DNA of 64,000 nucleotides, taken from positions 1 through 64,000 of IMG/VR virus record IMGVR_UViG_3300047409_000266; one strand, given 5' to 3'. Origin of the DNA: a virus. A program made the position numbers and the translations under genes. How positions within the stretch are numbered: the first letter of the stretch is position 1; each line of letters opens with the position of its first letter. Under the pieces are notes generated by a model that saw only the letters and a list, made by a program, of their open reading frames with translations, had not been told where the DNA came from and ran no database searches. Positions 29,119 through 43,253 of the stretch are shown piece by piece.

Positions 29119-29940
29119 ATGAAGAAGCTTCTAATGGGACTGGGAGCCTTGCTCATGTTGAGCATCGGCGCGCAGGCTGCTGATCTAGGCAGCAGGCAAC
29201 GTGGCGTTGAAGCTCCCATTGTAACGGCACAGCCGGTCGCATTCACCGGTGTCTACATCGGCGCCTTCTGGGGCTACGGAACATCAAACGACAACAGCGC
29301 GTTATCGCAATATCTGTGTCCGGACTGCAGTTCCGGAAAACTGGACTATCTGAACAAATACTACACTGGAAATCTCGGCACGCTTCATCGTGACGGAATG
29401 CTCGTCGGTGCTCAACTTGGCTATGATTGGGCCATGTCGGAGCGCTGGCGCCTTGGCGTCCTCATTGATGGTGCATGGTCAAACATCCAAGGCTCCGGTG
29501 GTTGGACTGGTGAAAATACCCAGCTAACATCGAAGCTCACTTGGCTAGCTAACTTCGATGCGAAGATCGGCTATCTCATTACATCAGGGGCGCAAATCTA
29601 TGCGCTCGGCGGAATGAGCGTCGGCCAAGTCAAGGATAGTATCAGCACCTTCGGTGGAATTAACAACTTGGGCGGCTGCGTTGGCGTGGTTTGCACCGAT
29701 CAAGCCAATCAAAGTGCATCCAGCACCAAGGTTGGTTGGAACCTCGGCGCCGGCTTTGAAGCCGCTCTCGATGCGCGTCGGGCATGGTCGGTGTTCATCG
29801 ACTATCGCCACACATGGCTGCCAGACAGTGGCATCAACTTCGCTGGATACATCTGCGACAATCCTGCTACGGCGGTGTTGAAGCAGAAGAATGAATTCGA
29901 CGTTGTGAGAGTCGGTCTTAATTTCCATCCGTACAACTAA
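29119..29940 (+). CDS. Omp25/RopB-family outer-membrane beta-barrel protein
   Basis: signal peptide AQAADL, FTGVYIG..WGYG, GAQLGYDW, GWNLGAGFE, VRVGLNF. Confidence 0.85.
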   Translation: MKKLLMGLGALLMLSIGAQAADLGSRQRGVEAPIVTAQPVAFTGVYIGAFWGYGTSNDNSALSQYLCPDCSSGKLDYLNKYYTGNLGTLHRDGMLVGAQLGYDWAMSERWRLGVLIDGAWSNIQGSGGWTGENTQLTSKLTWLANFDAKIGYLITSGAQIYALGGMSVGQVKDSISTFGGINNLGGCVGVVCTDQANQSASSTKVGWNLGAGFEAALDARRAWSVFIDYRHTWLPDSGINFAGYICDNPATAVLKQKNEFDVVRVGLNFHPYN

Positions 29941-30035: not shown

Positions 30036-30060
30036 TCGTAATCGTCGGAAGATATTGGGA

Positions 30061-30093
30061 GGAACCCTCGGCTTTGGCCGGGGGTTCTTTTTT
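30061..30093. terminator. terminator between convergent units
   Basis: GAACCCTCGGC..GCCGGGGGTTC followed by T6. Confidence 0.75.
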
Positions 30094-30099
30094 GTGGCC

Positions 30100-30288
30100 T
30101 TATTCCTCGTTGAGAATTTCACATAAAATGCGATACGCAGTTAGGTTGTCACTGTTATCCATTGCATTCACCGCAGCCAACATTGCCGCGCGCAGCCGAT
30201 CAATTTCCTTACTGCGCTCCATCGTCATTTCGAAGCCTACTTCGGCCATCACCTGATCTATGTTCACCTTATCGAGCGGGTCTGACAC
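30100..30288 (-). CDS. cassette ORF, hypothetical
   Basis: bounded by linker motifs. Confidence 0.6.
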   Translation of the reverse strand: MSDPLDKVNIDQVMAEVGFEMTMERSKEIDRLRAAMLAAVNAMDNSDNLTAYRILCEILNEE

Positions 30289-30297
30289 GATGGACCT

Positions 30298-30534
30298 TTA
30301 ACGCTTGTGTTCAGTTATCGTCGTTTTGCCGTATTGCGTGCTGGCAAGCCAATCTCTCCCGCACGACCCGCAAACATAGCTATGCGAGGTAATATTTGGG
30401 TCACCATTGTCCGTCCGGTTTCCCTTTTTGTCGTAAGTTGGCGTCCAGCCCATGCACGTTGAAGCGCCGCCGCGTGAGGAAATAGAGCAATCCTCGCGGG
30501 GGCAATCCTTCGTGATTTGCTGGATCGTGTTCAC
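30298..30534 (-). CDS. cassette ORF, Cys-rich zinc-ribbon-like
   Basis: CPREDC...CGSC; GTG start after linker. Confidence 0.6.
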   Translation of the reverse strand: MNTIQQITKDCPREDCSISSRGGASTCMGWTPTYDKKGNRTDNGDPNITSHSYVCGSCGRDWLASTQYGKTTITEHKR

Positions 30535-30541
30535 TTCGGGC

Positions 30542-30724
30542 CTATTCTTCTGTTTCAGATAGCGCGCGATCAATGGCTTCGCGGCTTATAGCTTTTAAAA
30601 GCGCCATGTTCACGACGCTCATCTTGGCAGCCATCCGTTTTGCAGCTTCATACGTTTTGTAGCGCCGATTAATTCTCTTACCTTCCGGCGTGTATCCTGA
30701 CAAATGGATTAGATCGTCAGACAT
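30542..30724 (-). CDS. cassette ORF, hypothetical
   Basis: bounded by linker motifs. Confidence 0.6.
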   Translation of the reverse strand: MSDDLIHLSGYTPEGKRINRRYKTYEAAKRMAAKMSVVNMALLKAISREAIDRALSETEE

Positions 30725-30732
30725 GCGGGCCT

Positions 30733-31050
30733 TTATCGTGGACTAGAGGTTGTACGATTTCTACCAGCCGCAAATGTCGCATCAATCACACATTTTGATT
30801 GAGCGCGGAATTTCATAAAGTGTGGCTCTCCGAGTGTGAATTTTTTGCGCAAATCTTTCCCATCGTGCAGATGTTCCAGTTCGTCGGGATCAAGGCCAGC
30901 CATCCGCGCTAAGGCTTTGGCACCAAAATCAACAAGGTAGTCATAGAAAGATTGCTCACAGCCCGCCACGGCGGCTTGCGAAGAACCTACGGCTAACGTG
31001 GACGGAGAGCGTAGACCGTCGAGGGTTCCTGCTGTGAGCTTCGGCATCAT
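30733..31050 (-). CDS. cassette ORF, hypothetical
   Basis: bounded by linker motifs. Confidence 0.55.
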   Translation of the reverse strand: MMPKLTAGTLDGLRSPSTLAVGSSQAAVAGCEQSFYDYLVDFGAKALARMAGLDPDELEHLHDGKDLRKKFTLGEPHFMKFRAQSKCVIDATFAAGRNRTTSSPR

Positions 31051-31062
31051 TGCAGCGGGCCT

Positions 31063-31263
31063 TTATCGTTTGCGTTTGCGAATGGGTTTTTCGGGTTCGA
31101 TTTGGTCGTGCCCGACAAGTGCATTCCAGACTTGTTCGATGACAGCATCGGCGTTGCCATTTTCAATATCCATTCCAATCTCACGCCGCAGCGCCGCCCG
31201 TGCTTTGGCTCGCAGCCTGTTGGGCATTTCGCTGTAGAACGGAAGTGCGCTTGTGCGTGGCAT
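31063..31263 (-). CDS. cassette ORF, hypothetical
   Basis: bounded by linker motifs. Confidence 0.6.
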   Translation of the reverse strand: MPRTSALPFYSEMPNRLRAKARAALRREIGMDIENGNADAVIEQVWNALVGHDQIEPEKPIRKRKR

Positions 31264-31274
31264 TCGGGCCTTTC

Positions 31275-31589
31275 TCAGTCTCGTTTGTTAACGTCCATTT
31301 CATTGATCGTAGCGTAGTCGGCCAAATGCCAATCCCAGCACTCAAGCGGCTCCATCAGATGCGCGTTTGCCGCAAGAAATCCAGACTCGTTGAACTTATA
31401 ATCTCCGGCTTGCTCTGGGTTTTTGCGCAGCCATTCCTCTCGCAACGCTTCACAGTCGATTTCGGCCAGCGCTCGAAACACGCCGCACACCGAGTAATCG
31501 CTGTAGCATCCTGTCGTCACGGTAAAGAGCGCGCCCTTTGGAATTGGCACCAGCTTCTTTTCGGACGCTAGATTTGCAATGTTCACCAC
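31275..31589 (-). CDS. cassette ORF, hypothetical
   Basis: bounded by linker motifs. Confidence 0.6.
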   Translation of the reverse strand: MVNIANLASEKKLVPIPKGALFTVTTGCYSDYSVCGVFRALAEIDCEALREEWLRKNPEQAGDYKFNESGFLAANAHLMEPLECWDWHLADYATINEMDVNKRD

Positions 31590-31599
31590 GGTTCGGGCC

Positions 31600-31779
31600 T
31601 TAATCCTGGTTGAGAGCTTGCTGAATTTCAGTCTGTGAATGTCCTGCGCTCATCATGGCTACTAGCGCCACGCTGCGCAGCCTGTCGATCTCGTCGGCCG
31701 CTTCCTCCAATAGTTCCCAAATGCCGTCATCGTTGGCCTTTCGTGCCTTAGCTTCGGTGCGCAGGAACGTGTGATCCAC
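31600..31779 (-). CDS. cassette ORF (59 aa) with LLEEAADEIDRLR motif
   Basis: hand-translated; bounded by linker motifs. Confidence 0.6.
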   Translation of the reverse strand: MDHTFLRTEAKARKANDDGIWELLEEAADEIDRLRSVALVAMMSAGHSQTEIQQALNQD

Positions 31780-31797
31780 GATCGGGCCTTTAACGGG

Positions 31798-31959
31798 CTA
31801 GGGTTCTGATTTGGGTTTTTCGGGTGGCTCTTTCTCAAGCCACTTGATGCCTTGTTGTAGCGATCCGATCTGCACCTGATTGGGATGGCGCTTCATAAGT
31901 TCCTGCAAAAAACCGGGTCCGGTTCGCTTGTCTTCTGGCCAGTCATCGGGGAATGACAT
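31798..31959 (-). CDS. cassette ORF, hypothetical
   Basis: MSFPDDWPED..., GAGGA RBS, overlaps the upstream ORF. Confidence 0.5.
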   Translation of the reverse strand: MSFPDDWPEDKRTGPGFLQELMKRHPNQVQIGSLQQGIKWLEKEPPEKPKSEP

Positions 31960-32170
31960 CTGTGGTTTCCTCAAAAATAATGGCAAAGTCTGTCACGTTT
32001 GGATTATGTGGGTTACCACGTGCTCTTGCTGCCGTATTGTGATGTTGAACAACATTCCTTACCGCTCGTCGCGCCATTCGTTCGCTATTTTCAAAACTAT
32101 GTTCGTGCCATTGTCCGTCTCTTTCAAGGCGCTCTACGAGAAAATGGCTAGTGGTTGTCCTTTTACTCAT
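31943..32170 (-). CDS. cassette ORF, hypothetical
   Basis: follows degenerate linker AAAAGCTCG. Confidence 0.55.
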   Translation of the reverse strand: MSKRTTTSHFLVERLERDGQWHEHSFENSERMARRAVRNVVQHHNTAARARGNPHNPNVTDFAIIFEETTDVIPR

Positions 32171-32178
32171 TCGAGCTT

Positions 32179-32379
32179 TTATTTCGTGTTTTCGAAGGCG
32201 CGATGCGCCATTTGTTCAATTGCACACAGCGAATTTCGCAGAGATAGTTCGATTGCATTACGTGATGTTAGGTCGTTCTCCAACTCACCAATTCTTGCAC
32301 ATAAGGCACGCAATAATGGGCGACCTACCGCCTTGGTATTAAGTAGCTTTTGCGCGGCAAAAAGTGGGTCGTTCTTCAC
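32179..32379 (-). CDS. cassette ORF, hypothetical
   Basis: bounded by linker motifs. Confidence 0.55.
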   Translation of the reverse strand: MKNDPLFAAQKLLNTKAVGRPLLRALCARIGELENDLTSRNAIELSLRNSLCAIEQMAHRAFENTK

Positions 32380-32390
32380 TACGGGCCTTT

Positions 32391-32696
32391 CTACTGCCTA
32401 CTCGTTTGCATGAATTTCTCAAGACGCTCACGCTTGCGGTCGCGCCCTTCACGTATGGCTGTGGCCTGCACAAGGTAGGCATCCTGCGTCATCGAAATGA
32501 CTTGAGATACGTCACCAATTTCTAGGCCGAGACAGTAGGTGTTCGACATACCATCGTTTGGCCGGTTCTCTTTTCCGAACCGGATCAGCTTGCTCGCTGC
32601 CTGGATAACCTCGGCGCATTCCTCCATCAGGATCACAAGCAATTCGCGCTCGTAGTCCGTGAGCGTCACACCGTTGGGCTGGTAGCGTTCAGACAT
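32391..32696 (-). CDS. MazG-like nucleotide pyrophosphohydrolase
   Basis: ILMEECAEVIQAASKLIRFG...LEIGDV (EExxE...ExxD). Confidence 0.75.
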   Translation of the reverse strand: MSERYQPNGVTLTDYERELLVILMEECAEVIQAASKLIRFGKENRPNDGMSNTYCLGLEIGDVSQVISMTQDAYLVQATAIREGRDRKRERLEKFMQTSRQ

Positions 32697-32705
32697 GCGG
32701 GCCTT

Positions 32706-32927
32706 TCAGGCAGCGTGGTCGAGTAGGATTTGCGTGGCCTTGTTCTCAGCGTCGGCGCGAGACATGACGCGCTGGCCACCATCGCGGCCTGGGTAGCCCC
32801 AGGTTACATAGAACTCGCCCTTGCGGCCGACCGGGTAGAAAGCCGCGTAGGCTTCACCAGCTACGGCACGCCACATTTTACGGCCTTTGGCGGTTCCATC
32901 CGGCATTACGACTTGCTGAAATTGCAT
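32706..32927 (-). CDS. first ORF of left array, hypothetical
   Basis: AAGGAG RBS, MQFQQVV... Confidence 0.6.
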   Translation of the reverse strand: MQFQQVVMPDGTAKGRKMWRAVAGEAYAAFYPVGRKGEFYVTWGYPGRDGGQRVMSRADAENKATQILLDHAA

Positions 32928-32976
32928 GGCGGTTCTCCTTTGGGCCTTTCGAATTAATCCCACCAGTTCAGGCGGG

Positions 32977-33038
32977 TTTGTTCCAACGACTATTGACATA
33001 CGCCTCGGGTGAGTTTATGTCAATGCCTGTGGAACAAA
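32977..33038. promoter_or_regulatory. symmetric bidirectional sigma70-type promoter within an inverted repeat
   Basis: TTGACA-17nt-TATGTC on both strands; TTTGTTCCA/TGGAACAAA outer arms. Confidence 0.75.
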
Positions 33039-33061: not shown

Positions 33062-33673
33062 ATGATTCGAACTTACATAAACGCCGCTTGCGGGGTTCCA
33101 GCCGCAGAACAGACGGCAATATGCCAAGGTAAGGGCATGGATCGGAATGTTGTTTACACGGATAGTCGGACCAGTTTTCCCAAGGAACGGGCGGCGCTAA
33201 TTAGTTCGCTGCGGGTCAATGGGAAGGGCGACACAGTACTGGTGTCTGATTTGGAAGCGCTGGCAATCAATAAAAAGGACTTGCGCGCGATCAGGGCAGC
33301 CTTGAAGGCCAAGGGGGCGACAATCCTTGAGGGCCGGACAAAACGGCGCTCCACGAACGCCGAACAGCTTGCAGACATGATCCAGGACGCCTTGGATCGA
33401 TGGTCCCACAAGGGGCGACGATGGTCCAATGAGAAGGTACAGGCCGAGGATGCCAGCAAAGGCGGCAAAGCGTTGGCTGAGACCCGTGCCGGGCGGAAGG
33501 TGCCCGATCGCAGGGCGCTCCAAATCTGGCTGGATGGTCGGCTAACCGCTGATGAGGCCGTGGACCGCATCAACGGTATTCCAGGCTACGAACTGAACTG
33601 GACTCGATCGACGGCCTACCGCGATCTTGGCAGGCGCAAGCTTAAGACTGGCCCGATCTCGGGCAGAAAATAG
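33062..33673 (+). CDS. serine resolvase/invertase homologue lacking catalytic residues, C-terminal HTH
   Basis: YINAA in place of YARVS; VYTD; GDTVLVSDLEALA in place of GDxxxVxxLDRLGR; LKAKGA; WTRSTAYRDL. Confidence 0.7.
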   Translation: MIRTYINAACGVPAAEQTAICQGKGMDRNVVYTDSRTSFPKERAALISSLRVNGKGDTVLVSDLEALAINKKDLRAIRAALKAKGATILEGRTKRRSTNAEQLADMIQDALDRWSHKGRRWSNEKVQAEDASKGGKALAETRAGRKVPDRRALQIWLDGRLTADEAVDRINGIPGYELNWTRSTAYRDLGRRKLKTGPISGRK

Positions 33674-33683
33674 GAGCCGAGCC

Positions 33684-33851
33684 GTGGGTTACGAACACCG
33701 CGAAGATTCACAGCAAATGGATTTCCGCAATGATCCAAAATCATGCGGGCATTGTTGGCGGTGCGGTGAGTTTCGTAGTTTGCGCTGTATCGAGCAGCAT
33801 GGGTGGCTATGCCGTCCTTGTATAAAAATTGACGAAGCCGAAAGCCGATAG
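33684..33851 (+). CDS. cassette ORF, Cys-rich
   Basis: CGHCWRC...CRPC; GTG after linker. Confidence 0.55.
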   Translation: MGYEHREDSQQMDFRNDPKSCGHCWRCGEFRSLRCIEQHGWLCRPCIKIDEAESR

Positions 33852-33861
33852 GGGCCGTTCT

Positions 33862-34104
33862 GTGAATGCCAAAACACCTTCATGCGTCATTGCAGATTGG
33901 CTCGCGCTCACCCGCGCCGGTCAGTGGACCCCAATGGAGGCTGCGCGGGAGGTCGTCGGTAGGTTGAAGTTAGAGGGCTACGCTATCGTTCCGAAGGAGC
34001 CGACCGAAGAAATGATTGACGCTGGCGAAATGGCCGTTGCTGACAATATCATCGAAGACACAGCACTCGAAACATATCGTGCAATGATCGGCACGATTAA
34101 ATAA
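33862..34104 (+). CDS. cassette ORF with VPKEPTEEM motif
   Basis: motif common in small phage proteins; bounded by linkers. Confidence 0.6.
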   Translation: MNAKTPSCVIADWLALTRAGQWTPMEAAREVVGRLKLEGYAIVPKEPTEEMIDAGEMAVADNIIEDTALETYRAMIGTIK

Positions 34105-34116
34105 AAGGAGCCGCGC

Positions 34117-34421
34117 ATGACTGACACGACCTGCCTAGATGAAATCATGCGCGTCTGGGATGACCTCATGGATTTGATTTTACCGTGCCGATGGAAACGA
34201 TTAGGAAATGGAAGAAGGCCGTGGCAGTAGAGCGTCTATTTGACTTGATGAATTTAATCTCTTGGGCCGAAGCTGAACTAGCGCGGGTAAAGAATCGAAC
34301 GCCGCTAAGGAACGCTGACGTGAACCGTGAACCAAAGAGTTGGTATTGCGATCAGTGCCACGTCGAAGTTTACGAACGGCGCTGTCCTCACTGTGGGAAG
34401 CTGGAAAAAGACAAGTCCTAG
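34117..34421 (+). pseudogene. cassette apparently frameshifted near 34175
   Basis: ATG 34117 frame stops early; a second frame (34185-34421) runs to the next linker with CDQC...CPHC. Confidence 0.4.
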
Positions 34422-34435
34422 AAAGGAGTCGACCC

Positions 34436-34519
34436 GTGATTGAGTTGACTCTTGTTCTCATCGCGCTGGCGCTCACAGTCTATTGCGGCTGGCATAAAAT
34501 GTTCGGGATGTGGAAGTAA
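34436..34519 (+). CDS. 27-aa TM micro-peptide
   Basis: VIELTLVLIALALTVYCGWHKMFGMWK*. Confidence 0.45.
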   Translation: MIELTLVLIALALTVYCGWHKMFGMWK

Positions 34520-34565
34520 GAGGACTCACTATGCCAAAATCGAAATGTTGTGAAGAAGCCGAGCG

Positions 34566-34670
34566 ATGAATTTTACGGGTTGGATACCGCCGGAGTTTTA
34601 CGTGATCGTCAGTCTCGCGGTATTGGTGCTGTTCTTCGGTGGCTATTTCGTTTGGTCTATAGTCCATTAA
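34566..34670 (+). CDS. 34-aa TM micro-peptide
   Basis: MNFTGWIPPEFYVIVSLAVLVLFFGGYFVWSIVH*. Confidence 0.5.
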   Translation: MNFTGWIPPEFYVIVSLAVLVLFFGGYFVWSIVH

Positions 34671-34682
34671 AGGAGCCGAGTC

Positions 34683-34823
34683 ATGATCAAATATGAAAAT
34701 CAGTACGGCGCGGAAATGGCATGGGCTAATTTTCACAAGCTGGTGTTTTACGGCACGGCTCGCTGGCCGTCTTACTGCTACTGGATTGTCCCCGGCACGA
34801 TCACTGATTTAGAACGAATGTGA
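34683..34823 (+). CDS. 46-aa cassette ORF
   Basis: exactly fills the interval between two linkers. Confidence 0.5.
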   Translation: MIKYENQYGAEMAWANFHKLVFYGTARWPSYCYWIVPGTITDLERM

Positions 34824-34835
34824 AGGGAGCCCGTG

Positions 34836-34988
34836 ATGGAGAAGGACATGCTGGAATTTTTGACGATCCAGGCCATCATGAATAATTACCGATGGACAAC
34901 TGCTCCTGAACGACAGGATAAGTTGGAACAGCGCGGGCTTCAGTTAGCTGAACTGCTCGCGCTCAGCATCGCCAACCGTGGCAGATAA
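34836..34988 (+). CDS. 50-aa cassette ORF
   Basis: exactly fills the interval between two linkers. Confidence 0.5.
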   Translation: MEKDMLEFLTIQAIMNNYRWTTAPERQDKLEQRGLQLAELLALSIANRGR

Positions 34989-35000
34989 AGGAGGCTTGGC

Positions 35001-35342
35001 GTGAGAATGTTCACGATCATGGTCGCGACGTATCGCATGGACAATGAGATTGTGGACGCGCGTACATTTGGCACGCCATATCTATGCGTCTGTATGCCGT
35101 GGGACATGATCGCATCACACGAAAGACAGGCGCACAAAAATCATAGTCAGACACTTGAGAGGCTTAATGAGCGCGGCGGACTTTCCGCGTGTGAGGCGCT
35201 GGCGGTTCTTGAGGATCGCGAATATCGGCGGATGCCGAAGGGTGCAGCCAACCACGAACTGTGTCGCAAGATTGCCGATTGGATAGACGAACAATGCGTT
35301 CCTGATCCTGCGAACGCTAATTCATCTCAGGCCCTTGCCTGA
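35001..35342 (+). CDS. cassette ORF, conserved-looking phage protein
   Basis: PWDMIASHERQAHKNHSQTLERLNERGGLSACEA. Confidence 0.65.
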   Translation: MRMFTIMVATYRMDNEIVDARTFGTPYLCVCMPWDMIASHERQAHKNHSQTLERLNERGGLSACEALAVLEDREYRRMPKGAANHELCRKIADWIDEQCVPDPANANSSQALA

Positions 35343-35355
35343 CGAAAGGAGCCCG

Positions 35356-35493
35356 ATGCGCAAAAAGCCGAAAACAAAGAAGCGGCGAAAGGAAAAGCGA
35401 TTGACCTGCTTTTGTACCGCCATCTGTTTTGGAAATGCAAAGCGCGGGCAAATCTGCAAGATGTATGATCCTAGAATTAAGTTGAACCATTAA
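35356..35493 (+). CDS. 45-aa basic Cys-containing ORF
   Basis: bounded by linkers. Confidence 0.45.
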   Translation: MRKKPKTKKRRKEKRLTCFCTAICFGNAKRGQICKMYDPRIKLNH

Positions 35494-35507
35494 AGGAGCG
35501 AGTTTGT

Positions 35508-35619
35508 GGCGGGGTAGTTCAAGTCTCTATAAGAACGGCTCATGCAACGACAAGGTAGCTAGCATACTACGTCGCCAAGATGAGCAGATCGCGGGTATGG
35601 AATCCCGCACCCGCAGCCA
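35508..35619 (+). ncRNA. tRNA-like RNA with extended anticodon arm and 3' CCA
   Basis: acceptor GGCGGGG/ACCCGCA-G-CCA, D stem GTTC/GAAC, GCTCA/TGAGC stem, variable AGATC, T stem GCGGG/CCCGC. Confidence 0.65.
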
Positions 35620-35637
35620 AATGAAAGGAGCCGCGTT

Positions 35638-35832
35638 GTGACCATCAGATGCGCCGACTGCGGCAAGTTCATTCCGACAACTCAGCTTGTGGACGACAGC
35701 GCGCGTTTCTTTTATCAACCCGATAGTGAATACGGCCATGAGATTTCGGAATGGACCTGTGCCGGTTGTGTTCAAAAAGAAAAACGACAGGCAGAAACCG
35801 AAGAACGTAAGCATCAGAATGAATTAGGATAG
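35638..35832 (+). CDS. cassette ORF, zinc-finger-like
   Basis: CADCGKF...CAGC. Confidence 0.6.
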   Translation: MTIRCADCGKFIPTTQLVDDSARFFYQPDSEYGHEISEWTCAGCVQKEKRQAETEERKHQNELG

Positions 35833-35881
35833 GAGGCCAAAATGTTTGGTGACGGTGGAACAGAATTCTGAAAGGGACGCT

Positions 35882-36067
35882 GTGACCGAGATTGAACGCT
35901 TGCGCCGCGCCCTGCAAAAGATTGCAGACTTGCCGGTGGAGAAATTTCCGGGGGCTAAGTTCGATCCGAACTTGCGCGCCAGACGTATTGCTATTGCAGC
36001 GCTAGGTGGCGACCCGGAAAGTGCAGACCATGAGAAGTTTTATTTGGTAAAAGGGACGCCATCATGA
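35882..36067 (+). CDS. cassette ORF
   Basis: EIERLRRALQKIA...IAIAAL motif. Confidence 0.55.
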   Translation: MTEIERLRRALQKIADLPVEKFPGAKFDPNLRARRIAIAALGGDPESADHEKFYLVKGTPS

Positions 36068-36156
36068 ACTTGATTAAGCCCGAAGTCTGGTCGCGATGTG
36101 ACGCTCAGTGTTATGGGCTATCGCGGCTTACTGGCTGGCGAGCCATTCAGAATTAA
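36064..36156 (+). CDS. 30-aa micro-ORF
   Basis: MNLIKPEVWS...RAIQN*, bounded by linkers. Confidence 0.4.
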   Translation: MNLIKPEVWSRCDAQCYGLSRLTGWRAIQN

Positions 36157-36165
36157 AGGGACGCT

Positions 36166-36246
36166 GTGACGCCATTTGAGGCAACTTTTGTTATGGTGGT
36201 GGGAACAGTTATTTTTCTCATCATTCTACACACAGGCAGAAGGTAG
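36166..36246 (+). CDS. 26-aa TM micro-peptide
   Basis: VTPFEATFVMVVGTVIFLIILHTGRR*. Confidence 0.45.
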   Translation: MTPFEATFVMVVGTVIFLIILHTGRR

Positions 36247-36255
36247 GAGCGAAAA

Positions 36256-36471
36256 ATGTATGACCTCTTAATGAGCAATGGAATCATGTTTGGTTTTGGC
36301 GGCATCGTGGGCTTTCTGATTGGTCAGAAAGTTACGAAGTGGCCAAGCGAGCAAGCAATGATGGACCGGTTAGTCATTGAAGCTACGCAACGCAGAATGC
36401 TCGGCGTCACTCAAAAAGACATTGAGCATAATATCGAAACCCGCGTTGAGGCTAATCTGAACAAAATCTGA
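36256..36471 (+). CDS. cassette ORF, N-terminal TM
   Basis: AGGAG RBS; ends in linker. Confidence 0.55.
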   Translation: MYDLLMSNGIMFGFGGIVGFLIGQKVTKWPSEQAMMDRLVIEATQRRMLGVTQKDIEHNIETRVEANLNKI

Positions 36472-36482
36472 AAGGGACGCAA

Positions 36483-36653
36483 ATGGCTGCCGCCGTAGCA
36501 ATCAGGCATATTGCGCAAGGTATCTGCCGAGTAGTTAGCAGAGGTTGCGTCATGGACGAAAAGCCGAAGCGTCCTGTATGCACGGCGAAGAATTGTCGAA
36601 TGGTTCGGATCGCGCACATGGCCGTTAAATCGGCGCTGGAACAGACCAAGTAA
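36483..36653 (+). CDS. 56-aa cassette ORF
   Basis: hand-translated; bounded by linkers. Confidence 0.5.
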   Translation: MAAAVAIRHIAQGICRVVSRGCVMDEKPKRPVCTAKNCRMVRIAHMAVKSALEQTK

Positions 36654-36666
36654 GGGACCGCGATCC

Positions 36667-36798
36667 GTGAAGCAATTCGGAATATCAGGCGAATGTTTAG
36701 ACCATGTCGCTGAAATGCGAGAGCGAGAGAGAGACAAATATCTCCGGTCGTACTCAACTTGGTTTCGGAGACTTTTGCACTGGCTAGGATTGGAGTGA
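36667..36798 (+). CDS. 43-aa cassette ORF
   Basis: hand-translated; bounded by linkers. Confidence 0.5.
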   Translation: MKQFGISGECLDHVAEMRERERDKYLRSYSTWFRRLLHWLGLE

Positions 36799-36808
36799 AA
36801 GGGACGCC

Positions 36809-37042
36809 ATGACGCGCACAGAGGCAGAAGCCGAAATGGTTCAGGGGTTCATGGACGGCTATGACGTGGATTGTCCGGTGCCAAGTCTCAATCGCAGCTA
36901 TAGTTATCGGCACGGGTTTTTGAACGGTCGCGATGACAAAGTTCTCAAGCGTCCGCGAGACACCGCAGAGCGATTACGCGAGATAGCCGAGGACTGTATC
37001 GCACTCGATTGCGGTGAAGTCGTTTTGGCGCAGATGGCATAG
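36809..37042 (+). CDS. cassette ORF
   Basis: EMVQGFMDG...NRSYSYRHGFLNGRDD. Confidence 0.6.
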   Translation: MTRTEAEAEMVQGFMDGYDVDCPVPSLNRSYSYRHGFLNGRDDKVLKRPRDTAERLREIAEDCIALDCGEVVLAQMA

Positions 37043-37058
37043 AGCCGAAAGGGACGCC

Positions 37059-37376
37059 GTGCTGATCCCCTGTGATATGGGCTCCGAATGTTACTGGCCA
37101 GCGTGCAATCTAGATTGCCGTGGGCGGATCATGGAGGCCAAAACGCTTAGCGTGGCTGTGCCAATTGCCGATAAGGTAAACCGCTGCGAAACCTGTGGCG
37201 TCGATACCGACTTTATTCACGACCACAAGTCGGACAACTCCGGTTTAGATGACGGCCCTTACTTACCTGGGTGTAGGCCACGGAAGCGGCCAGTTCGCAG
37301 GGACGATCTTGGCGAGGTGCGCAAGCGGGCGTGGCAAACGCGGCGCACTAAATACGGCAGCAGGGGGCACAGATAG
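37059..37376 (+). CDS. cassette ORF, Cys-rich
   Basis: GTG after linker. Confidence 0.5.
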   Translation: MLIPCDMGSECYWPACNLDCRGRIMEAKTLSVAVPIADKVNRCETCGVDTDFIHDHKSDNSGLDDGPYLPGCRPRKRPVRRDDLGEVRKRAWQTRRTKYGSRGHR

Positions 37377-37378
37377 CA

Positions 37379-37549
37379 ATGAAAACACTTGGCCAGCTTT
37401 CCTATGAACGCGATCTTGAGTTGCGCCCGCTCTATCACGATGGCGAGCGACGTAAGCCATGGGAGAAACTTAGCGAGATTTGCAGGTGGAGTTGGAATCG
37501 ACCGATACCTATTCCAGCGCGGGAGGACGGCGATGGCGCGCGGGTTTGA
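37379..37549 (+). CDS. 56-aa ORF
   Basis: MKTLGQLSYERDL...YHDG..RKPWEKL. Confidence 0.5.
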   Translation: MKTLGQLSYERDLELRPLYHDGERRKPWEKLSEICRWSWNRPIPIPAREDGDGARV

Positions 37550-37694
37550 TCGTTTTGAGGAAGGCGAGCGACTGATCAATATGCTGCTCAAATCTAGCGA
37601 ATGTGGCGGCATGGGAATGAACGAGACGCCATGTGAATATTTGCGGCGACTACTCGATGTACTTAAAAACGCAACAATCATGCTTGAGGAATGA
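37533..37694 (+). CDS. 53-aa ORF
   Basis: GGAGG RBS, MARGFDRF... Confidence 0.45.
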   Translation: MARGFDRFEEGERLINMLLKSSECGGMGMNETPCEYLRRLLDVLKNATIMLEE

Positions 37695-37697
37695 GCC

Positions 37698-37892
37698 ATG
37701 ACTATGAAGGTTGAATGTTATTTCTGCGGCGACGATTGCTCAACCGCACACGCGACCTGGCATGGCTACCCGTGTCACATCATGTGCATTCCAGCAAAGC
37801 CAAAGAAAACCGTGAGTGAAGTTGCTACACCGCAACCAATGCGGACTGGCGGCGTGCCAGTCTTTGCCCGTGTCAATGGCACAGAAATATAA
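37698..37892 (+). CDS. Cys-rich ORF
   Basis: CYFCGDDC...CHIMC; ends in linker. Confidence 0.55.
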   Translation: MTMKVECYFCGDDCSTAHATWHGYPCHIMCIPAKPKKTVSEVATPQPMRTGGVPVFARVNGTEI

Positions 37893-37902
37893 AGGGACCG
37901 CG

Positions 37903-38094
37903 ATGGCACGCAAAAAGAAGAAAGACGGCAAGCACATTTGCAAATGCGAATGTGGCGGCGAGGTTCGCGGCGTTGAAAGCCTGGGGCGCATGTTTACATG
38001 GTGCGAGAAATGCACGCCCATCACTAAGATCGCGCCCGATGCAATTGCGTCATGGTATCACGGCGACATCGACGGTGATGGATCGCTGGCATAG
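37903..38094 (+). CDS. cassette ORF, zinc-ribbon-like
   Basis: CKCECGG...CEKC. Confidence 0.55.
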   Translation: MARKKKKDGKHICKCECGGEVRGVESLGRMFTWCEKCTPITKIAPDAIASWYHGDIDGDGSLA

Positions 38095-38113
38095 AGCCGA
38101 AAGGGACCGCGAC

Positions 38114-38674
38114 GTGTGGCCTACGGAATATCGATTGATTAAAACTCTGCGAGAGCGCGCAGACTTAAAGCAACGCAACGTCTGCTATTGGTGTGCCATG
38201 CCAATGTTGAATGATGTGACGGCTGAACATTTGATCCCTCGACACGCGGGCGGCAAAACTGTTGCGGGAAACATCGTGGCGGCACATCGCAAATGCAATA
38301 GCGGACGGCAACACCAAGACCCATTAAGACGACAAGAACAGTTGCAAAATGCGTTGCGAAATTCTTTGCAACGAACGTGCATGGAGGTCGTGGTGCCAGT
38401 CAACAAATTTTATAATGATAATTTTACGGCGGCAGAGTTGGCCGACGCGATTGAACTCGGTTCTGCAATTTCTATACGGCGAGATCAGAAGTGGGTAACG
38501 TATCGAATGCGCCCGCTGTTCTCAAAGATGGTGGCTAGAGCAATTCGACTTGGTTGTCCTAGCGAATGCTGGCACGCGAAGATAGATGACGGGGCGATGT
38601 TAAAATGTAGCTTGAAGGGTGGCCATGGCGGTCAACATAAAATGGCTGTCATTGCTACGCAGGACGAATTTTGA
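38114..38674 (+). CDS. HNH endonuclease fused in frame to an unrelated C-terminal segment
   Basis: CYWC...TAEHLIPRHAGG...NIVAAHRKCN. Confidence 0.7.
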   Translation: MWPTEYRLIKTLRERADLKQRNVCYWCAMPMLNDVTAEHLIPRHAGGKTVAGNIVAAHRKCNSGRQHQDPLRRQEQLQNALRNSLQRTCMEVVVPVNKFYNDNFTAAELADAIELGSAISIRRDQKWVTYRMRPLFSKMVARAIRLGCPSECWHAKIDDGAMLKCSLKGGHGGQHKMAVIATQDEF

Positions 38675-38686
38675 AAGGGACGCAGC

Positions 38687-38866
38687 GTGTGGGGCGAAGT
38701 ATACTCGACTGGATGGGGAATGCCGCTCATGTTTTGCCGGGTTTGCGGTGGGCGCGTAGGTGACGGCGCGTGCCCGCGTCACCCGCAAGCGCCAGAAGGA
38801 ATGCAAATGCTGATCGACAAATATCTTGGCTTGCTAGTTGGCAGGCACGTAGAACAGACAACTTAA
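38687..38866 (+). CDS. 59-aa cassette ORF
   Basis: CRVC...CPRH; bounded by linkers. Confidence 0.5.
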   Translation: MWGEVYSTGWGMPLMFCRVCGGRVGDGACPRHPQAPEGMQMLIDKYLGLLVGRHVEQTT

Positions 38867-38877
38867 AGGCACGAGCC

Positions 38878-39054
38878 ATGAGCATTCGGATTGCTGGAAG
38901 CATGACGAGGCTAGCGGAGCGCAATGCGTTCGAGCGAGTTGCGCGTTGGCATTCTCGAATGTCTAAGCTGGCCAAAAACAGTGAAGAAAAATATTGGCAC
39001 TTGAACGCAGCCAAGGTGTTCCGATCATGGAAGCGCCGTGGGATTCAAACTTAG
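38878..39054 (+). CDS. cassette ORF
   Basis: ATG after TAAAGGCACG. Confidence 0.5.
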   Translation: MSIRIAGSMTRLAERNAFERVARWHSRMSKLAKNSEEKYWHLNAAKVFRSWKRRGIQT

Positions 39055-39064
39055 AGGACCACGC

Positions 39065-39220
39065 TTGGCCTTAGAGCTAAAATATAGTCCGCGCTTTATA
39101 AACCGCCTGCAACGATTGGCGCGCGGCGCGACTTATCCGATTTGGTCAATGACAAGTTTCAAGGCTTCAGTAAGTAAACCGAAGCCGATACGGCAAGACA
39201 AACTGAAACGCAGGAAATAG
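39065..39220 (+). CDS. basic cassette ORF
   Basis: TTG after TAGAGGACCACGC. Confidence 0.4.
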   Translation: MALELKYSPRFINRLQRLARGATYPIWSMTSFKASVSKPKPIRQDKLKRRK

Positions 39221-39230
39221 GGACCGCGCA

Positions 39231-39353
39231 GTGAACTTGATTGATGTTCTACGAGAAGGCGGCGAACCTGCAATGCAGATGATTAGTGGATTTATTTTTA
39301 TTTTCGGACTGCTCATTGAGTTGATTTGGATTGCTGACGAGATTCAAAAATAG
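39231..39353 (+). CDS. 40-aa TM peptide, last unit of right array
   Basis: GTG after TAGGGACCGC. Confidence 0.45.
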   Translation: MNLIDVLREGGEPAMQMISGFIFIFGLLIELIWIADEIQK

Positions 39354-41993: not shown

Positions 41994-43253
41994 CTATGCC
42001 GGGTATGCCGGGACGGCTGATTGTTTTGCAGTATAGGCCAGCCGCACCTCGGTCCGCTCGGCCTCAGATAGCGCCTGGATCGCCTCGTCATTGTCTTTGG
42101 CCCAGCGCAACGCACCCAGTTTGCTTTCGATCTTTTCCATGCTGGATATCAGGGCATCCTTTTTTGACGCACTGGCGGCCTTCTCTGTGGCTTGCTCTTT
42201 CGGCTGCTCTGGCTCCTTGGCGGCTGCGGGCTTCGCCGGGGTATGTTTTGCGCCTCTGGCCTTCTCAATCTCAGCTTTCAGCGCCAAGGCGTCGTTCTTA
42301 CTGTGCCCCCAGAATTCTTGGAGTGTGGCGCGGTTCTGATCTTCAAACAGCTTGATCTGCTCCGGTGTTTTGCCACTGAGCCACGCGATCACAGTGTCGG
42401 CAAACTTTCCGAATGGGATTTTCTCCTGCGCGGTGGTGTCGTGGAAGTAGACCATGAGGCCGGGAGGTCCGAGACGCGCGAGGCGATTCTCAGTCTCGGC
42501 CTTTGTCACCATCTCGCTCGGCGTGAGGTCTTGATATTCGACATCCTCGAGCACGGCGGAGCGATCGGTTTCTTCCTGCACATAGAGACGTGACAGATCC
42601 TCGGGCCAGCCTTTCCGCAGAGCGCCCATCTCGGAGCATTTGGCGATCTGATTGCGGCCTGACTTGATCCAAGCGTCTTTTTTAGGATCGAGACGAGCGG
42701 TGACTTTCGCGCCGGCCTTCAATTTCTTTCGCTTTTTCGGATTGCCATCCGGCCATGTCTCGCCTGTTTCTACCATGTCGTAATCGTCATCATCGCCAGC
42801 ACGAATAAGAGGCGCAAACTCGTCCCAGTAGACCGTGTGCACGATGCGCTGGAATGGATCGTTGGCGGTCGGTCGATGATAGACACCGACAGTGCATGTC
42901 TCGATGCCGTGCGGGTTGCTAAGAGGGTCTTTCAATTCCTCTTTGAAAACCCATACTGGCGGGTGATCGTCAGGACGATAATTGCATGTGCGCGCTGCGA
43001 TTGACCGGCTACCGTCGATGCCGGTGACGAGGACCATGTTTCGTTTCTTCGGATCATTCTTTGAAAAAACAAAAGCGTAGAGTTGTTTGCGAAGCGGCGA
43101 GAGGTTCAATTCTCGCGCCACCGCAACCGCCTCGTCGAATTCGTCGGCGTTGCAATCCTTGAAAGCCGTGCGCCTGACTAGCGAGACCATCTTCGGATCT
43201 TGCCACCAGGAAGTTGCTGGCAGTGTGTTGGTGGGCTTTGTGAGGGCGTTCAT
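41994..43253 (-). CDS. bet: Bet/RecT single-strand annealing recombinase
   Basis: LSPLRKQLY...TGIDGSR.IA.RT...QIAKCSEMGALRKGWPEDL..LY..EE. Confidence 0.85.
   Translation of the reverse strand: MNALTKPTNTLPATSWWQDPKMVSLVRRTAFKDCNADEFDEAVAVARELNLSPLRKQLYAFVFSKNDPKKRNMVLVTGIDGSRSIAARTCNYRPDDHPPVWVFKEELKDPLSNPHGIETCTVGVYHRPTANDPFQRIVHTVYWDEFAPLIRAGDDDDYDMVETGETWPDGNPKKRKKLKAGAKVTARLDPKKDAWIKSGRNQIAKCSEMGALRKGWPEDLSRLYVQEETDRSAVLEDVEYQDLTPSEMVTKAETENRLARLGPPGLMVYFHDTTAQEKIPFGKFADTVIAWLSGKTPEQIKLFEDQNRATLQEFWGHSKNDALALKAEIEKARGAKHTPAKPAAAKEPEQPKEQATEKAASASKKDALISSMEKIESKLGALRWAKDNDEAIQALSEAERTEVRLAYTAKQSAVPAYPA

Follow-up and report, generated by a model that had tools for sequence, protein, structure and literature searches.

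A 9-nt linker, AAAGGCCCG, that separates nearly all the genes of a small-gene operon in the virus record IMGVR_UViG_3300047409_000266 is probably (at roughly 60%, in our estimate) a translational-coupling junction and, at the DNA level, a conserved boundary sequence at which cassettes are shuffled. The stretch under study (hereafter the window) covers the initial 64 kb of this 96,528-bp record and holds two divergent operons of small genes, both starting from an inverted-repeat promoter region near position 33000. The left array lies on the minus strand, with genes running from 32927 to 30100 and linker copies covering 32950-30095, while the right array lies on the plus strand, begins with a gene for a 203-aa resolvase-like protein, and extends to about 39300.

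The exact motif AAAGGCCCG occurs six times in the window, always on the minus strand (at 30726, 31056, 31265, 31783, 32382, and 32698), compared to 0.73 copies expected from dinucleotide shuffles, none of 100 shuffled sequences having reached six; the left operon contains all the copies present in the 96,528-bp record. Each of these six copies (30726-32706) is flanked by a stop and a start codon. In the same line, the interval 30537-32703 contains eight copies of GGCCCG, all of them on the minus strand. Reading of the sequence adds six variants, namely TAAGGCCCG (31594-31602), ATAGGCCCG (30537-30545), AAAGGCCCA (32942-32950), AAAAGCTCG (32172-32180), AAAGGTCCA (30291-30299), and TAAGGCCA (30095-30102), and thereby bears out the 12 copies counted in the first-pass annotation, which had been made from the sequence alone. 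A linker is present at 10 of the 11 gene-to-gene junctions, the exception being an overlap of two open reading frames (ORFs) at 31943-31959. As had also been noticed, the first copy (32942) stands apart from the ribosome-binding site proper: it lies in the 5' untranslated region (UTR), directly followed by a separate strong Shine-Dalgarno sequence (SD), AAGGAG, at 32935-32940.

The ability of the linker to serve as an SD was evaluated with the 16S rRNA tail of Roseibium, the host of an analogous array, whose 3' end reads ...GATCACCTCCTTTCT (also written ...GAUCACCUCCUUUCU); the tail in the window phage's own host may differ. AAAGG is complementary to CCUUU of this tail and, after TGA or TAG stops, the pairing extends to (A)GAAAGG with CCUUUC(U). 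The computed duplexes amount to -3.6 to -8.0 kcal/mol for the AAAGG-type (family-A) linkers of the left array, -9.2 kcal/mol for AAAGGAG at the first copy, and -7 to -13 kcal/mol for the AAAGGAG linkers of the right array. The distance between GG and the start codon is 5-10 nt at all junctions, and the upstream stop codon either overlaps AAAGG or lies within 6 nt of it. Besides, gene 1, the sole array gene devoid of an upstream cistron, is the one that carries the extra strong SD, and GTG is used as the start codon in 5 of the 12 genes. Pairing, spacing, start codons, and the additional SD of gene 1 all fit weak, stop-overlapping SDs that depend on coupling, so that the AAAGG part would act as a weak SD serving translational coupling. 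The earlier view of the linker as something other than a normal SD is thereby only half sustained: AAAGG or (A)GAAAGG pairs with the 16S tail at a suitable distance from the start, whereas CCCG has no pairing partner in the Roseibium tail, exactly as the first reading had proposed for the anti-SD, and this 3' end offers no complement to AGGCCCG. The 8-mer AAGGCCCG is complementary to an internal 16S stretch, CGGGCCUU, which we take to be the 3' strand of helix 28, base-paired in the ribosome according to the E. coli secondary structure; this pairing was treated as a coincidence and would be broken by the variant AAGGCCGCC found in G003, one of the contigs described below.

The conservation of the linker exceeds what an SD needs, which supports the proposal of a role beyond translation initiation: CCCG is unpaired, the genes on both sides are unrelated, identity between some copies reaches 13-18 nt, and the motif recurs in other phages. 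Comparison of the array ORFs by BLASTP revealed no paralogues, and the uniformity of the linkers is therefore not derived from duplication of a gene-plus-linker unit, an origin that can be excluded. Linkers 7 and 8 are identical over 13 nt (CGATAAAGGCCCG) and linkers 1 and 8 over 18 nt (AAAGGCCCGCATGTCTGA), both stretches taking in the final or initial codons of neighbour genes that are unrelated; in addition, three junctions of the window read CG(A/T)TAA ahead of the motif. Three linker classes coexist in this single phage, AAAGGCCCG in the left array and AAAGGAGCCG, then AAAGGGACGC/ACCGCG, in the right one. All three consist of AAAGG followed by a GC-rich spacer and each array is internally homogeneous in linker class, while the genes elsewhere in the phage have GGAG-type SDs with varied spacers. 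The coexistence of three spacer types indicates that no single spacer is required for translation, i.e., that there is no single translational optimum.

As regards the right array (33684-39300, plus strand), AAAGGAGCCG occupies about 33670-35640 and AAAGGGACGC/AAAGGGACCGCG about 35860-39230. An exact 21-nt direct repeat, TGGCATAGAGCCGAAAGGGAC, is present there at 37035-37055 and 38087-38107, at the ends of two unrelated ORFs, and is made of one half of a B-type linker and one half of a C-type linker. The string GAAAGGGACGAGATG was also seen twice on the IMG/VR contig L168.

The same linker is found in at least six other records of phages, prophages, and genomes that are otherwise largely unrelated. 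A scan of IMG/VR for two exact AAAGGCCCG copies 175-205 nt apart gave 61 loci, from which coding repeats and terminator arms were removed by requiring a stop and a start codon beside the motif, followed by a by-eye check. True stop-AAAGGCCCG-N1-6-ATG arrays remained in 4 of the 61 loci, on independent contigs (G001/L040, G002/L083, G003/L039, and G005/L049, L049 being identical to L062). A stricter pattern applied to 185,579 species genomes yielded two more arrays, one on the contig L256 of a Rhizobiales metagenome-assembled genome, and the other, with seven linkers, in a prophage of Roseibium sp. MMSF_3247 (L190/L305). Taken together, the records give the consensus (G)AAAGGCC(C/G)(G/C). Linkers are lengthened to AAACGCTAAAGGCCC in G001 (L100, 6340-7900), where several unrelated small proteins consequently end in -KR, and to CGTAATCAGAAAGGCCC in the Roseibium prophage. 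With composition-matched control motifs, true arrays were found in none of 51 loci for AAAGGCGCC and in one of 120 for AAAGGCGGC, the latter having its own linker, GAAAGGCGGCGGGG. Compared to 4 of 61, these figures show that array-specific linkers are a general habit and that the AAAGGCCCG type is unusually widespread. Almost no proteins are common to the window phage and the linker-bearing records, or to one such record and another, and no protein family common to all of them was detected at BLASTP E<1e-4. The resolvase-like protein, suggested earlier as a partner of the linker, is not conserved along with it, as it was looked for in the five other linker-bearing records and not found. In G001, the array is preceded, at a distance of about 3.7 kb, by a tyrosine integrase gene such as any ordinary temperate phage would be expected to have.

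Most raw pattern matches were rejected as collagen-like KGP coding repeats (AAA GGC CCG codons) or terminator hairpins of the form AAAGGCCCG...CGGGCCTTT, and KGGM coding repeats that passed the automatic filter in the second control were discarded by eye. In the bacterial genomes L193, L217, and L290, AAAGGCCCG(C/G) is common as the left arm of intrinsic-terminator hairpins, AAAGGCCCGC...GCGGGCCTTT, and is thereby a source of false positives in pattern scans. The control scan also brought up a phage contig with another array linker, TGAcctgacacGAAAGGCGGCGGGGGC-ATG, in three copies (L373:5779-6200, minus strand). Loci collected on the basis of MazG (L002-L008) turned out to be distant phages with ordinary, varied ribosome-binding sites. 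Finally, genes for C-5 cytosine DNA methyltransferases were observed inside or at the head of AAAGGCCCG-linked arrays, at L305:8488-9351 in the Roseibium prophage and at L311:15114-15827 in G005.

Where two of these arrays are related in sequence, the relatedness ends at the linkers. Between G002 and the Roseibium prophage (alignment A1), about 78% identity is maintained from ATAAAGGCCCGG to GATGATCAAATAGAGGCCCG and none is seen beyond. Between the Roseibium prophage and L049 (A2), similarity stops at TATA(A/G)GAAAGGCCCG, in the downstream linker, the start of the block being less sharp than its end. The third case (A4) involves the window itself and concerns gene 7 of the left array, which, together with gene 9, was covered by a search of a large protein database. 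Nine proteins, including that of the window, were retrieved for gene 7 at E<=0.001, making it the sole array gene with homologues found in other phages, while gene 9 matched nothing but itself among 5.8 billion proteins. The gene-7 homologues P0003-P0008 show 60-66% identity, and the homologue encoded by the 73-kb contig L436 (61% identity) has unrelated neighbours and belongs to an array with related linkers. Upstream of this homologue, the junction is TAGCCCGGAA-ATG where the window has TAAGGCCCGAACC-GTG, and downstream it is TAGAAAGGGCCCGCAA-ATG where the window has TGAGAAAGGCCCGA-ATG. In all three alignments, similarity is confined to one gene and its flanking linkers, the neighbours beyond being unrelated. 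The CCCG part is thus recognizable in homologous arrays, a lack of which had been named as grounds for abandoning the initial proposal: related linkers flank the gene-7 homologue of L436 and AAAGGCC(C/G)(G/C) recurs elsewhere.

How the linker would fulfil its two roles can be proposed as follows. In the mRNA, the weak SD AAAGG adjoins the stop codon of the preceding small gene or shares nucleotides with it, and the start codon (ATG or GTG) follows 5-10 nt further on, so that terminating ribosomes would re-initiate on the next cistron and couple translation along the operon. In the DNA, the stop codon, AAAGG, and CC(C/G)(G/C), often with a few flanking codons, would constitute a conserved boundary string common to a pool of single-gene accessory cassettes moving among alphaproteobacterial phages and prophages. 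A cassette would be one ORF between linker copies. By virtue of the identical GC-rich 9-17-mers at all borders, cassettes could enter, leave, or replace one another in register, with break-points in the linker, and those that succeed would bring their own linkers. Such events would be rare and would most likely proceed by short-homology annealing or by template switching, perhaps aided by phage RecT-type recombinases. Cassette exchange at linkers would keep CCCG identical between unrelated genes and unrelated phages, and could also explain why some linkers form sub-groups with longer identity, why the operon has an orphan copy at either end, and why hybrid linkers occur in the right array.

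Several points weigh against this proposal. Roughly 30 bp is quoted as the minimum homology for Red-beta recombination (PMC3945230), and linker identity, at 9-17 bp, lies under this value, which would make exchange at the linker rare. Joints at gene ends are also predicted by the alternative view in which random illegitimate recombination is followed by selection for intact genes (PMC3029335); we infer that recombination takes place inside the linker itself and that the position of the joints does not merely reflect such selection. More distant homologues of gene 7 have different upstream sequences, and no left-array gene of the window was found beside an exact AAAGGCCCG in another phage, the linker of L436 being related but not identical. 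In addition, only two control motifs were scanned, and the 16S complementarity, as computed, rests on the tail of Roseibium.

Other explanations can be weighed against the same data. The linker might be the site of a trans-acting factor, be it a translational repressor or activator, a T4 RegB-type endoribonuclease, a small RNA (sRNA), or a stoperator-like DNA-binding repressor, in which case all cistrons of the left operon would be co-regulated and the three linker classes would represent three regulatory classes. The motif is indeed asymmetric, in a single orientation, and present at every junction but the overlapping one, with one copy in the 5' UTR away from the real SD and a partial copy after the last gene; it is class-specific inside one phage, conserved above SD needs in other phages too, and comparable to the SAS motif, whose function is likewise open (PMC3203893). 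Such a factor nevertheless appears unlikely. At BLASTP E<1e-4, no protein family common to the linker-bearing records was seen, the resolvase-like protein included, and the Roseibium genome displays no enrichment, with 121 copies of the 9-mer versus 172 of a reversed control and 9 junction-like copies outside the prophage versus 6 for the control, counts that also rule out a host-wide signal. The sRNA form of the hypothesis encounters the fact that no complementary CGGGCCUUU is encoded elsewhere in the phage record. The junctions show no excess of RNA folding (mean z +0.39) and no Rfam match, by which a structured RNA was set aside, and the promoter/operator palindrome between the two arrays has no linker copy. 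A restriction-avoidance or Chi-like motif was discarded as well, GGCCCG being seen 33 times versus 38.6 expected from lower-order k-mers and AAAGGCCCG not being enriched in Roseibium.

An ordinary SD plus spacer, made uniform by mutational bias or by selection for a single initiation region that is optimal locally in a phage rich in GC, would account for the SD-like complementarity and spacing of AAAGG and for the AAAGG plus GC-rich spacer common to all three linker classes. It is hard to reconcile with the GGAG-type SDs and varied spacers of the other genes, with the coexistence of three spacers, with identities of 13-21 nt running into flanking codons, with the recurrence of the 9-mer in unrelated phages but not in the host (Roseibium), and with similarity blocks that stop at linkers, and we hold it to be improbable. 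We hold equally improbable a scenario in which the GC-rich box between SD and start, which reads GGCCCG in the window and GCCGCC or GCCCGCC in G003 and L436, is a second cis signal read by a conserved alphaproteobacterial host component, the phages having converged on it instead of inheriting it with cassettes; a terminating or re-initiating ribosome, in view of the complementarity of AAGGCCCG to the helix-28 strand CGGGCCUU, or a host RNA-processing or RNA-binding factor, would be possible readers. Finally, integron-like site-specific recombination, with the linker as crossover site and the adjacent resolvase-like protein as recombinase, is suggested by the cassette-like array that adjoins the resolvase-like gene (33062-33673, plus strand), the product of which has as its best tblastn match a phage record annotated as gamma-delta resolvase (29% identity). 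This protein has no Pfam match at E<=0.001, lacks the catalytic Ser/Arg according to the by-eye reading of the first-pass annotation, and was not found in the five other records with the same linker. Integrons combine attC sites, which are imperfect inverted repeats of 57-141 bp, with an adjacent IntI tyrosine integrase, whereas the linker is a 9-nt asymmetric sequence devoid of inverted repeats, unlike res, attC, or shufflon sites. From its sequence and that of its neighbour, the system would thus not be counted among integrons, and the recombination-site hypothesis, largely refuted, is very improbable.

The nearest published analogues are the promoter-early stem-loops (PeSLs), the SAS motifs, and the boundary sequences of lambdoid phages. 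PeSLs are mobile regulatory cassettes of T4-type phages, tens of bp long, that contain a sigma-70 promoter and a terminator stem-loop (PMC2839356, PMC4122927). Like the linker, they are expression signals of short length, repeated in plastic early regions where they separate small non-essential ORFan genes, and recombination between their copies is held to drive the insertion, deletion, or replacement of single genes. PeSLs act on transcription, whereas the linker, with 9-17 nt, unstructured and promoterless, would act on translation within one polycistronic operon; neither a promoter-like element, by a consensus scan, nor a hairpin, by folding, was detected at the junctions. SAS (5'-GGGATAGGAGCCC, 13 bp) is located upstream of start codons in cluster K mycobacteriophages, about half of the copies being accompanied by 17-bp inverted repeats (ESAS) (PMC3203893). 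Both motifs are asymmetric, have one orientation, directly precede the start codons of genes that belong to different families, and combine an SD with a conserved C-rich extension that may have a role beyond translation. The linker is not a SAS, and the likeness is one in kind only: sequence and host group differ, SAS is scattered over the genome whereas the linker overlaps the preceding stop within one operon, and the linker has no inverted repeats and is shared by phages that otherwise have hardly any genes in common.

The modular theory of lambdoid phages includes conserved short boundary (linker) sequences at gene borders, found at mosaic joints (PMC3029335). In the present case too, the same string is found at the borders of unrelated genes (12 copies) and joints coincide with it (three alignments), but while only a minority of lambdoid joints lie at such sequences, the linker is present at nearly every junction of the operon and doubles as a ribosome site. 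Stoperators of cluster A mycobacteriophages, 13-bp binding sites of the phage repressor that are spread genome-wide and match the operator at the early promoter (PMC3029335), are similar in being short, asymmetric, placed in short intergenic gaps, and oriented with transcription. Judged on these features, the linker would not be one of them, since it is limited to one operon, is absent from the promoter palindrome, and is accompanied by no DNA-binding protein found to be common to the phages that bear it. What is new here is the sequence itself, its alphaproteobacterial range including a cultured Roseibium, the presence of three classes in one genome, and the very short core.

The left array (minus strand throughout) can be described from its promoter-proximal end. 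Nearly all its genes lack any family in family searches. Gene 1 (73 aa, 32706..32927), for which no family was found, is followed by linker 1 (TGAAAGGCCCGC-ATG, 32698..32706), part of the 18-nt repeat described above (family D19), and by gene 2 (101 aa, 32391..32696), which encodes a MazG-like NTP pyrophosphohydrolase (phrog_4856, E=4e-17). Linker 2 (TAGAAAGGCCCGTA-GTG, 32382..32390), an exact copy, precedes gene 3 (66 aa, 32179..32379), while linker 3 (TAAAAGCTCGA-ATG, 32172..32180) is a degenerate variant with a duplex of just -1.8 kcal/mol. Genes 4 (75 aa, 31943-32170) and 5 (53 aa, 31798-31959) are in different frames and have 17 nt in common; they make up a single linker-to-linker unit (31798..32170) without internal linker, possibly a frameshifted gene, a cassette of two genes, or a case of programmed frameshifting. 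The exact linker 4 (TAAAGGCCCGATC-GTG, 31783..31791) leads to gene 6 (59 aa, 31600..31779), and linker 5 (TTAAGGCCCGAACC-GTG, 31594..31602), assigned by reading, to gene 7 (104 aa, 31275..31589). Linker 6 (TGAGAAAGGCCCGA-ATG, 31265..31273), the counterpart of the L436 junction in A4, is followed by gene 8 (66 aa, 31063..31263), linker 7 (CGATAAAGGCCCGCTGCA-ATG, 31056..31064; 13-nt family D2, with linker 8), and the ORFan gene 9 (105 aa, 30733..31050). Linker 8 (CGATAAAGGCCCGC-ATG, 30726..30734), again exact, is succeeded by gene 10 (60 aa, 30542..30724), linker 9 (TAGGCCCGAA-GTG, 30537..30545), and gene 11 (78 aa from the GTG behind the linker, 30298..30534), and the variant linker 10 (TAAAGGTCCATC-GTG, 30291..30299) by gene 12 (62 aa, 30100..30288), the final gene of the operon; these two linkers, as well as gene 11, were assigned by reading.

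After the last stop codon, the terminal partial linker (30095..30102) has no gene behind it, in agreement with what had been noted, but the terminator said to follow it belongs mainly to the opposite side. The hairpin in question (30055..30090, 11-13 bp), common to the converging operons, has its T-run (T6) on the plus strand and folds at -28.2 kcal/mol on the plus strand and -19.4 kcal/mol on the minus strand, where there is no U-tract; it would thus mainly terminate the converging plus-strand genes, namely a porin-like ORF (29119-29940) and a 31-aa ORF. The porin-like gene encodes a 273-aa protein with a signal peptide and, by eye, the look of an outer-membrane beta-barrel, whose best matches, in 7 of the 151 genomes covered from the order that includes Roseibium, show just 27-34% identity. 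At the other end of the array, a putative divergent promoter/operator palindrome, ATTGACATA...TATGTCAAT (32992..33024), was recognized by reading between the left array and the resolvase-like gene and is absent from the output of the promoter consensus scan.

The phage appears to be without close relative in the collection searched: blastn of the left array against 50,697 phage records returned zero matches, and tblastn with the RecT-family protein and with the resolvase-like protein gave a single distant match each. Protein family searches show that the record also codes for a 4,831-aa polyvalent protein, helicases, and the RecT-family protein, the gene of which is located at 41994-43253 of the window. 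In the whole 96.5-kb record, AGGCCT (a StuI-type site) is never seen, versus about 45 copies expected from lower-order k-mers, other GGCC-containing hexamers being at their expected counts, which looks like the avoidance of one host restriction site.

These data bear on an old question, namely whether phage modules are exchanged via conserved linkers (the Botstein view) or by random illegitimate joints sorted by selection (the Hendrix view). Here, one 9-nt string would be at once a stop context, a ribosome site, and the border of single-gene cassettes, and it is found in phages that have almost no genes in common, one of them a prophage of a Roseibium strain in culture. With such a host and a defined 9-mer, short-homology cassette exchange could be tested in a concrete system and, for annotation, linker-to-linker intervals may flag real mini-genes that fall under the usual size cut-offs. 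If CCCG were read by a host factor, the linker would represent a new translation or processing signal.

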